64,000 bases of DNA from Escherichia coli (GTDB lineage Bacteria > Pseudomonadota > Gammaproteobacteria > Enterobacterales > Enterobacteriaceae). The stretch lies in assembly GCF_044647545.1 (NCBI RefSeq), contig NZ_CP172818.1, one strand, 5' to 3'. A program made the translations under genes and the position numbers. Shown here in pieces: positions 26,980-32,090 of the stretch. Numbering within the stretch: the first letter of the stretch is position 1; every line of letters starts with the position of its first letter. The notes under the pieces were generated by a model. That model searched no databases, was not told the DNA's origin, and was given only the letters and a program-made list of their open reading frames with translations.

Positions 26980-29610
26980 TTATTGCAATTTCGCGCTGAC
27001 CCAGCCTTTCACACTGGCTAACGCTGCAGGTAAGGCCGCAGCATCCGTACCACCGGCTTGCGCCATGTCAGGACGTCCACCACCCTTGCCGCCCACCTGC
27101 TGAGCGACCATACCAATCAGCTCCCCTGCTTTCACACGATCTGTGACGTCCTTAGATACGCCTGCAATCAGAGAAACCTTACCTTCGGCTACCGTTGCCA
27201 GCACGATAATTGTCGACCCCAGCTGATTTTTTAAATCGTCAACCATGGTACGCAACATTTTCGGCTCAACACCGCTAAGCTCGCTAACCAACAGCTTAAC
27301 ACCATTAACATCAATTGCCTTACTGGAAAGATTTGCGCTCTCCTGTGCGGCAGCTTGTTCTTTAAGCTGTTGTAACTCTTTTTCCAACTGACGCGTACGT
27401 TCCAGTACTGAACGCACTTTATCAGCCAGATTATTGCTATCGCCTTTCAGCAGATGCGCGACTTCGCTTAAGCGATCACTGTCTGCATGAACGGTGGCGA
27501 TAGCGCCTTCTCCGGTTACCGCTTCGATACGACGAACGCCTGCAGCAGTACCCGATTCAGAGATGATGCGGAACAGACCAATATCACCAGTGCGGCTGGC
27601 GTGAGTACCGCCACACAACTCGGTGGAGAAATCACCCATGCTCAGCACGCGTACGCGCTCATCATACTTCTCGCCAAACAGCGCCATCGCACCTTTCGCT
27701 TTCGCCGCTTCGAGATCCATGATGTTGGTTTCGATCGGCAAGTTACGGCGAATCTGTGCGTTCACCAGGTCTTCGACCGCACGAATCTCTTCTGGTTTCA
27801 TCGCTTCGTTGTGTGAGAAGTCGAAGCGCAGCACTTTGTCGTTAACCAGTGAACCTTTCTGCGATACATGAGTACCCAGAACCTGGCGCAGCGCAGCGTG
27901 CATCAGGTGCGTTGCGGAGTGATTCAGACGAATACGGGCGCGACGAGCCTCATCAACATCAGCCTGCACAGCGTCGCCCACTTTCAGAGAACCCGTAGCA
28001 AGTTTACCGATGTGACCAATCGCCTGGCCGTATTTCTGAGTATCTTCCACCGCAAAGGAGAAGTTAGCGCCTTTCAGTTCGCCTTTATCACCAACCTGAC
28101 CGCCGGATTCCGCATAGAATGGCGTTTGATCCAGCACGACCACAGCTTCCTGGCCTGCATTGACGGCATCAACCGCTTTACCATCAACAAACAGCGCGGT
28201 CACTTTGCCGTTCAGTTCCAGATGGTCATAGCCTTTAAATTCAGATGCACTGTCAACACGGATCATTGCGTTGTAATCGGCACCAAAGCCGCTGGCTTCG
28301 CGCGCACGACGACGCTGCTCTTCCATTGCTGCTTCAAATCCAGCTTCGTCAACTTTGATGTTGCGCTCACGACAAACATCAGCCGTCAGGTCAACCGGGA
28401 AGCCATAGGTGTCGTACAAACGGAAAGCAGTTTCACCATCCAGCGTATCACCAGAAAGTTTTGCCAGCTCTTCATCCAGCAACGCCAGACCGCGCTCCAG
28501 AGTACGAGCAAACTGCTCTTCTTCAGTCTTCAGCACCTGCTCAACCTGCGCCTGCTGGCGTTTCAGGTCTTCACCCGCAGAGCCCATAACGTCGATCAGC
28601 GGACCAACCAGTTTGTAGAAAAAGGTTTCTTTCGCGCCGAGCATATTACCGTGACGCACTGCGCGACGAATGATACGACGCAGTACATAACCACGGTTTT
28701 CGTTGGACGGCATTACGCCATCCGCGATCAGGAACGCACAAGAACGAATGTGGTCAGCGATTACGCGCAGCGATTTATTGCTCAGATCGGTTGCGCCAGT
28801 GACTTTCGCTACCGCCTGGATCAGCGTGCGGAACAAGTCGATGTCATAGTTAGAGTTAACGTGTTGCAGCACCGCAGCAATACGCTCCAGACCCATACCG
28901 GTATCTACAGACGGCTTCGGCAGCGGTTCCATCGTGCCATCGGCCTGGCGGTTGAACTGCATGAAGACGATGTTCCAGATCTCAATGTAGCGATCGCCGT
29001 CTTCTTCCGGACTTCCCGGAGGGCCACCCCAAATGTGGTCGCCGTGATCGTAGAAGATTTCGGTGCACGGGCCGCACGGACCAGTGTCACCCATCTGCCA
29101 GAAGTTGTCAGATGCGTATGGCGCACCTTTGTTATCGCCGATGCGAATAATACGTTCGCGCGGGATCCCTACTTCTTTTTCCCAGATTTCGTAGGCTTCG
29201 TCGTCGCTTTCATAGACGGTAACCCACAGACGCTCTTTCGGCAGGGCAAACCATTTTTCACTGGTCAGCAGTTCCCATGCAAACTGAATGGCATCGTGTT
29301 TGAAATAGTCGCCGAAGCTGAAGTTGCCCAGCATTTCGAAGAAGGTATGGTGACGCGCGGTGTAACCGACGTTTTCCAGGTCGTTGTGTTTACCACCCGC
29401 ACGCACGCAGCGTTGGGAAGTGGTAGCGCGGGAATAATTACGCTTGTCGAGCCCAAGGAACACATCCTTGAACTGGTTCATCCCGGCGTTGGTAAACAAC
29501 AAAGTTGGGTCGTTATGGGGTACCAGGGAGCTGCTGGCAACTACCTGATGTCCCTTACTATGGAAAAAGTCGAGAAACGCCTGACGGATCTCAGCGGTGC
29601 TCTTGCTCAT
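26980..29610 (-). CDS. alaS: alanine--tRNA ligase
   Basis: ORF track 26980..29610, 876 aa; recognised AlaS. Confidence 0.97.
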
Positions 29611-29738
29611 AATTATCCTGAAATCAAGCTAACGAAATATCGCTACCAGCCGTTGCGTGTCGTTAACCGCCCGGCTGGTAACTGAAAAGTGGGAATAAGA
29701 TAAGTTTTCTTGACTGGGAAGTAAAATCCCGTATGCGT

Positions 29739-30239
29739 TCAGTCGGCAAAATTTCGCCAAATATCCTGGATATCTTCCATCAGATAGCCACGATAGAGCA
29801 GAAAACGCTGGATCTTAACTTTTTCTGAAAAGGCAGTTGGCAAAGGTTCGCCATATTTTCGCGTCGCCTGATCGCGCGCCAGTTCGCACCAGTCGATGTC
29901 ACATTCACGCATCGCTTTTTCTGTCGCTTCGCGGGAAATACCTTTCTGATTCAGTTCCTGACGAATACGCGCAGGTCCATAACCTTTGCGACTACGACTG
30001 GCAATAAAGCGCGCCACAAATCGGCTGTCATCGAGATAGCCATGTTCATGGCACCAGGCGATAACCCGCTCGTAATCTTCTGCCGTAGCATCAATCTCTT
30101 CCGGGCCATTTTTGCCCATAATCGGTGCCGCGAGTTTACGCCGCAGTTCTTGCTCACTGTGATCGCGCACCGCCAGAATGCGTACCGCACGATCCAACAG
30201 GCGAGCATATGCCGGGCGACGGGATGTTGATTCTGTCAT
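29739..30239 (-). CDS. recX: RecA inhibitor RecX
   Basis: ORF track 29739..30239, 166 aa; directly downstream of recA. Confidence 0.95.
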
Positions 30240-30255
30240 GGCATATCCTTACAAC

Positions 30256-30290
30256 TTAAAAAAGCAAAAGGGCCGCAGATGCGACCCTTG
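30256..30290 (-). terminator. hairpin plus U-tract between recA and recX (attenuating terminator)
   Basis: Minus-strand agggtcgcatctgcggccct hairpin followed by TTTTGCTTTTTT; a terminator between recA and recX is described for E. coli (established knowledge). Confidence 0.55.
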
Positions 30291-30307
30291 TGTATCAAAC
30301 AAGACGA

Positions 30308-31448
<1,141 letters not shown>

Positions 31449-31946
31449 TCAAGTGTTTTGTAGAAATTGTTGCCACAAGGTCTGCAATGCATACGCAGTA
31501 GCCTGACGACGCACCGCATCACGGTCACCGCTGAAGCATTCCCGGCGGGTAATACCTTCGCCGCGGGCGGTGGCAAAAGCAAACCAGACGGTGCCGACAG
31601 GCTTCTCTTCACTGCCGCCATCCGGCCCGGCGATACCACTAATAGACACGGCATAATCAGCACGAGCCGCTTTCAGTGCGCCTATCGCCATTTCCACCAC
31701 GACAGGCTCGCTCACCGCGCCATGCTGCGCCAGCGTCTCTTCACGTACGCCGATCATTTGCGCTTTGGCTTCGTTACTGTAGGTGACAAATCCGCGTTCA
31801 AACCAGGCGGAGCTACCGGCAATATCGGTAATCACTTTCGCTACCCAACCACCGGTACAAGACTCAGCAGTTGTTACGGTTGCGCCACGGGCTTTCAGCG
31901 CCTGCCCAACCTGTTCGCTTAACTGCATCAGTTCACTGTCAGTCAT
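31449..31946 (-). CDS. pncC: NMN amidohydrolase (CinA C-terminal domain family)
   Basis: ORF track 31449..31949; start placed at second Met (MTDSELMQLSEQ...); 165 aa. Confidence 0.9.
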   Translation of the reverse strand: MTDSELMQLSEQVGQALKARGATVTTAESCTGGWVAKVITDIAGSSAWFERGFVTYSNEAKAQMIGVREETLAQHGAVSEPVVVEMAIGALKAARADYAVSISGIAGPDGGSEEKPVGTVWFAFATARGEGITRRECFSGDRDAVRRQATAYALQTLWQQFLQNT

Positions 31947-32090
31947 CACAACCTCTGTCAGTCAAAAATTTATGCCGGACAAGATAGCACTTTCGTCAGG
32001 AAGATGGTGTTGGCGTTGCAATTTTACGAGGAGGATTCAGAAAAAAGCTGATTAGCCAGAGGGAAGCTCACGCCCCCCTCTTGCAAATAG

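Follow-up and report, generated by a model that had tools for sequence, protein, structure and literature searches.

The closest described system is the recA terminator and read-through transcript of Pages, Koffel-Schwartz and Fuchs (2003, DNA Repair 2:273), which concerns the same organism, the same locus and the same element as the one analysed here. In the passage of PMC3542578 that cites this work, a terminator is placed upstream of E. coli recX with a read-through of approximately 10%, and in that of PMC9252578 citing the same work, recA and recX are co-transcribed, RecX is around 500-fold below RecA, and the down-regulation of recX acts on transcription as well as on translation. The former paper groups recX with two further examples of partial terminators, those before gluQ-rs (downstream of dksA) and upstream of dnaG (PMC3542578). 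Both are also made of a hairpin and a U-tract between co-transcribed genes and likewise set a lower level of the downstream gene, but their sequences are unrelated to the recA–recX element; they are analogues in function, without homology to it. Regulated attenuators and riboswitch expression platforms share with it a terminator hairpin ahead of a coding sequence; unlike them, the recA–recX element comes without a conserved alternative structure, a leader peptide or an aptamer, and its upstream flank is freely replaceable. The phrase 'recA terminator' had no match in the literature searched.

In the 64,000-nucleotide stretch of E. coli DNA analysed here (the window), the element between recA and recX is very probably a constitutively leaky, Rho-independent (intrinsic) terminator of the recA transcript. 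The 141 nt covering the recA–recX spacer show no difference from K-12 MG1655, and to the extent that the system of Pages et al. is described in the papers citing it, with the same reported read-through of approximately 10%, we see no difference between that system and this one.

The recA–recX spacer, its hairpin and the mapped RNA 3′ end

The region of the window around recA and recX is 100% identical to E. coli chromosomes, and the genes annotated there in RefSeq (pncC, recA, recX and alaS) all lie on the minus strand; adding 2,792,400 to a window coordinate gives the coordinate in NC_000913.3 (MG1655). The recA promoter, TTGATA-16-TATAAT (31425–31452, minus strand), matches the consensus at 11 of 12 positions and overlaps the palindrome TACTGTATGAGCATACAGTA (31448–31429), which we take, from established knowledge of the recA operator, to be the LexA box. 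This promoter is the reported source of both transcripts, recA and recA–recX. We also considered a separate recX promoter inside recA and rejected it, as the candidate (30882–30855) matched the consensus at only 9 of 12 positions and the region held three such sites against 5.4 expected. The recA coding sequence of 353 codons plus stop (30308–31369, minus strand; MG1655 2822708–2823769) and the recX coding sequence of 166 codons plus stop (29739–30239, minus strand) follow the RefSeq annotation, and positions 30240–30307 are exactly the 68-nt spacer from the recA stop (TAA, 30310–30308) to the recX ATG (30239).

Read on the minus strand, the spacer is UCGUCUUGUUUGAUACAC-AAGGGUCGC-AUCU-GCGGCCCUU-UUGCUUUUUU-AAGUUGUAAGGAUAUGCC. 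It opens with 18 nt of recA 3′ UTR (30290–30307), after which, on the same strand as recA, begins a hairpin delimited by folding and comparative pairing (30268–30289). The hairpin has a 9-bp stem with six G–C pairs and one G·U pair, formed by a 5′ arm AAGGGUCGC (30289–30281) and a 3′ arm GCGGCCCUU (30276–30268) around the tetraloop AUCU (30280–30277), and the terminator scan that reported it gave the tail as TTGCTTTTTT. An interrupted U-tract, UUUU-GC-UUUUUU (30258–30269; UUUUGCUUUUUU), has U at 10 of 12 positions and is broken after the fourth U; its first two U's double as the closing bases of the hairpin stem. Further downstream, a putative Shine–Dalgarno sequence, AAGGA (30246–30250), stands 6 nt 5′ of the recX ATG, and an AGG or GAGG motif is found at a comparable distance before recX in most relatives. 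With this motif, translation of recX would start independently on read-through transcripts.

The original prediction had placed a minus-strand hairpin followed by a U-tract between the recA stop and the recX start, and sequence, folding and conservation all bear it out. The hairpin string it quoted, agggtcgcatctgcggccct (30288–30269), is right, but one T had been counted in both the hairpin and the tail: what is left of the tail beyond 'ccct' is TTTGCTTTTTT, and the run that follows CCC is TTTT GC TTTTTT (30269–30258). The calculation of folding energy proposed as a check gave approximately −15 kcal/mol, with −14.8 kcal/mol (z = −5.0) for the hairpin alone and −15.4 kcal/mol (z = −4.4) for the hairpin with its tail, and in each case none of 200 shuffles did as well. 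The fold of the whole 68-nt spacer was unexceptional compared to shuffles (z = −1.4). A role for the element on the plus strand, as a bidirectional terminator, was rejected: the complement folds at −14.0 kcal/mol with z = −1.7 and has no U-tract after it, and all annotated MG1655 genes from mltB to alaS are on the minus strand.

An inverted repeat of this size could in principle be a functionless product of chance, and loose terminator scans found about as many sites in shuffled as in real sequence (7 found against 7.7 expected, and 14 against 9.2). As such scans cannot tell a real terminator from a chance site, we used a strict scan of both strands of the 64-kb window, which demanded a contiguous stem of at least 8 bp with at least 5 G–C pairs, a loop of 3–8 nt and at least 8 T's in 12 positions. 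Three sites were found, the recA–recX hairpin among them, against 0.23 per dinucleotide shuffle. Added to the shuffled folds, the conservation of the hairpin across genera and the abundant RNA 3′ end that maps to it show that it is not due to chance, a reading that we regard as refuted and to which we attach next to no probability.

That 3′ end comes from the MG1655 Term-seq data of Adams et al. (2021, eLife, PMC7815308), whose supplementary file 1 lists 3′ ends from three growth conditions in three tabs; position 2822664 (minus strand) has three entries there, all of them assigned to recA as 'primary'. These entries carry the surrounding sequence of the hairpin and U-tract, and two of the three list average counts of 172,050 and 77,819 (PMC7815308). 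The position is window coordinate 30264, the C of UUUUGC, so that Term-seq, also named beforehand as a check, places an end inside the U-tract, and the refuting outcome named with it, a lack of 3′ ends at this site, is not what is observed. It lies 4 nt past the 9-bp stem and 6 nt past its G–C core. The 3′ ends of terminated transcripts usually lie 7–9 nt from the stem. Being nearer than this, the mapped end may be an exonuclease-trimmed product of release at the distal run of six U's. In an extended fold, the C-A upstream of the hairpin pairs with the U-G of UUUUG; the RNA may equally well be released at the GC itself or in the distal U6, with its 3′ end in the latter case trimmed back to this extended stem.

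The unusual nearness of this end to the stem would also fit a hairpin that mainly protects the 3′ end, with transcription stopping further downstream, in a Rho-dependent manner or elsewhere, and exonucleases trimming the RNA back. Steady-state 3′ ends of Rho-terminated transcripts just 3′ of stable stem-loops are described by Dar and Sorek (2018), but the protective stem-loops described there have no U-rich sequence after them, whereas UUUU follows the stem here in 73 of 73 sequences compared. In addition, the recX start and its own ribosome-binding site, 30 nt downstream, would hinder Rho loading, and three other supplementary files of Adams et al. hold no recA, recX or 28226... entry, although this last point is weak evidence. 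We therefore consider 3′-end protection as the main function highly improbable. The combination of hairpin and U-tract instead predicts Rho-independent release at the recA terminator.

Conservation and natural alleles of the element

To compare the spacer among relatives, we scanned one genome per species for RecX, which gave 79 loci, and located the recA stop in each. The Enterobacteriaceae set has 73 rows including the window, from genera including Escherichia, Citrobacter, Salmonella, Enterobacter, Klebsiella, Raoultella, Kosakonia and Pluralibacter, and its 67 distinct sequences were used for pairing statistics. The element is present in all 73, as (A)AGGGYYGC, a loop of 4–7 nt, GCRGCCC and then UUUU. 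This proximal UUUU is invariant, and a second U-run usually follows. Outside this set, the motif is absent from Serratia and Brenneria, with Serratia having a long hairpin but no U-tract, and the locus of Rodentibacter (Pasteurellaceae) has an unrelated canonical hairpin and U6 at the same place.

Standard pairs occupy 98.8% of alignment cells among the 67 distinct sequences, compared to 30–70% in a control in which the partners were slid by 1–3 columns. Five of the nine stem pairs never vary, and the others switch only to standard pairs except in a few unpaired cells; one variable pair is U·G in 27, U–A in 25 and C–G in 15 sequences, and another is C–G in 55 and U·G in 11. The seven-pair core has one exception, a G–G mismatch (locus L004); the six other unpaired cells all belong to the two outer A–U pairs, mostly at places where an insertion has taken over the upstream flank. 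No pair shows a double change relative to its commonest form. The sequences are related, and their conservation is thus partly shared ancestry; the pattern is one of conservation with structure-neutral drift, not of strong covariation, as judged from the alignment. The loop, the upstream flank and the sequence 3′ of the first U-run are all free to vary.

The U-tract is imperfect throughout the family. The U-run after the stem is 4 long in 50 of the 73 sequences, 5 in 22 and 6 in one; it is broken by G or C in every case, mostly as UUUU(U)GC, and none has seven or more uninterrupted U's. A G·U pair or mismatch is retained in 41 of the 73 stems.

Spacer length ranges from 66 to 1,022 nt, with the hairpin core ending 23–50 nt (mostly 27–33) before the recX start and all insertions lying 5′ of the hairpin. 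One such insertion is a 174-nt element found directly against the hairpin in 1,633–1,638 of 5,425 complete E. coli genomes (approximately 30%), between the recA stop and the terminator and ending exactly at the stem GGG; the window's own strain is without it. An example, equivalent in position to approximately 30290 of the window, is L081:1312–1499 (E. coli SZQ1, NZ_CP173996.1). The insert is a dispersed repeat with a median of 6 and a maximum of 14 sites per genome; its short ends are inverted relative to each other, it contains a G+C-rich palindrome, and it presumably resembles a box-C-type repeat. In this allele the two outer A–U pairs are lost and GCAAAA pairs with UUUUGC, giving a longer, bulged stem of −19 kcal/mol, compared to −15 kcal/mol without the insert, with U6 directly after it.

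Other relatives carry different sequences in the same slot. In the 1,022-nt spacer of Escherichia sp. MOD1-EC7003 (L004:597–1471), a 169-bp unit is repeated in tandem 5.1 times; each unit combines the terminator hairpin (GGGGCGC/GGGCCGC-ATTT-GCGGCCC) with REP/BIME-like palindromes, and a U-tract follows the last hairpin copy only. In E. albertii (L005), a degenerate hairpin copy comes first, followed by REP-like palindromes and then the intact hairpin. Different inserts in other genera, again 5′ of the hairpin, occur at loci L007, L012, L014, L016, L071 and L017. Those of Citrobacter and Salmonella are short REP-like palindromes, such as CCGGATAACGC...GCCATCCGG, and that of Silvania confinis (L017), which includes ...CCCCAGGAGCTTAC...GTGACTGGGGTGAGCG..., presumably resembles ERIC/IRU.

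These comparisons bear on whether the element is a regulated attenuator, in which the share of read-through would not be fixed but could change, for instance increase in the SOS response, under the control of an alternative RNA structure, a ligand, a protein or the position of the ribosome. Its place between two genes of one operon is the usual one for an attenuator, and the minimum free energy (MFE) fold of the whole spacer has weak outer pairings around the hairpin, but that fold, as noted above, is no better than those of shuffles. Between genera, the 18-nt flank upstream of the hairpin defies alignment, and unrelated repeats break it in other species as well as in around 30% of the E. coli genomes, with the hairpin being kept. 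This flank is the only stretch that could provide an anti-terminator, and, being both unconserved and interruptible, it leaves no conserved anti-terminator partner. Control coupled to the ribosome is further disfavoured by the distance of the recA stop from the stem, 18 nt here and up to approximately 1 kb in relatives. Finally, an Rfam search of 29000–32000 with E-values up to 10 returned two chance-level eukaryotic matches only, and thus no family for the element. As the element lacks both an Rfam family and a conserved alternative structure, we favour a constitutively leaky terminator and consider a regulated attenuator very unlikely. The original prediction had spoken of attenuation that keeps recX expression far below that of recA; this holds only loosely, in the sense of a partial terminator, and we found no sign of a regulated attenuator.

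The recX start region and the recX–alaS spacer

Because a translational handicap of recX has been reported, we examined whether its start is masked by pairing of AUAUGCC, before the ATG, with GGCAUAU in codons 9–11. The pairing is present in the MFE fold, but the candidate was rejected, as the fold scored z = −0.2 to −0.3 against shuffles, and RNAalifold with 28 genera found no conserved pair for this helix. In the same region, an out-of-frame AUG stands 5 nt before the recX AUG (AUGCCAUGA, 30235–30243, minus strand) and opens a two-codon mini-ORF (Met-Pro-stop); the UGA of this mini-ORF overlaps the recX start codon. Other genera lack the mini-ORF, which is Escherichia-specific and may or may not be connected with the poor recX translation that has been reported.

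Downstream of recX, the recX–alaS spacer (29611–29738, minus strand) folds at −38.4 kcal/mol, far better than shuffles (z = −4.4), with an 11-bp stem, UUACCAGCCGG...CCGGCUGGUAG, and no U-tract after it. Two lists of curated Term-seq 3′ ends contain none between alaS and recX. This fold could mark the end of the recA–recX read-through transcript or be part of the alaS control region.

Read-through from recA into recX

In the mechanism that we propose, RNA polymerase would start at the LexA-controlled recA promoter and transcribe the G+C-rich hairpin and U-tract 19–50 nt past the recA stop codon, where most polymerases would release to give abundant monocistronic recA mRNA, with the 3′ hairpin probably also shielding this mRNA from 3′ exonucleases. 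Approximately 1 in 10 transcripts would run on into recX, whose ribosome-binding site is around 30 nt downstream. Such partial read-through from the recA promoter would make recX SOS-inducible together with recA, at a much lower level. The terminator cannot be the whole cause of the 500-fold gap between the two proteins, because the part of PMC9252578 that cites Pages et al. (2003) also reports a separate, translational handicap on recX.

The leak itself may be due to the U-run of four broken by GC, together with the G·U pair in the stem. More tentatively, this imperfection may itself be selected, with read-through tuned to hold the RecA:RecX ratio; the U-run that is short and broken in every relative and the G·U pairs or mismatches kept in more than half of the stems fit such tuning, which we consider possible but somewhat doubtful.

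The recA terminator and read-through into recX are already known, and have been since 2003, so the element brings nothing new for E. coli. Its value is modest, as a clean and conserved partial intra-operon terminator with natural alleles for comparison. Only two points are mildly new: the U-tract is interrupted in all members of the family compared, and a common E. coli allele has a remodelled stem base.

RecX caps RecA filaments and dismantles them. According to papers that cite Stohl et al. (2003), UV resistance falls both when RecX is lost and when it is overexpressed. A leaky terminator would provide a simple coupling of recX to the SOS induction of recA while keeping RecX sub-stoichiometric. 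The interruption of the U-tract or the insert allele could bear on the RecA:RecX ratio, and if the imperfection of the terminator is indeed tuned, the insert allele carried by approximately 30% of E. coli could give a different dose of recX.
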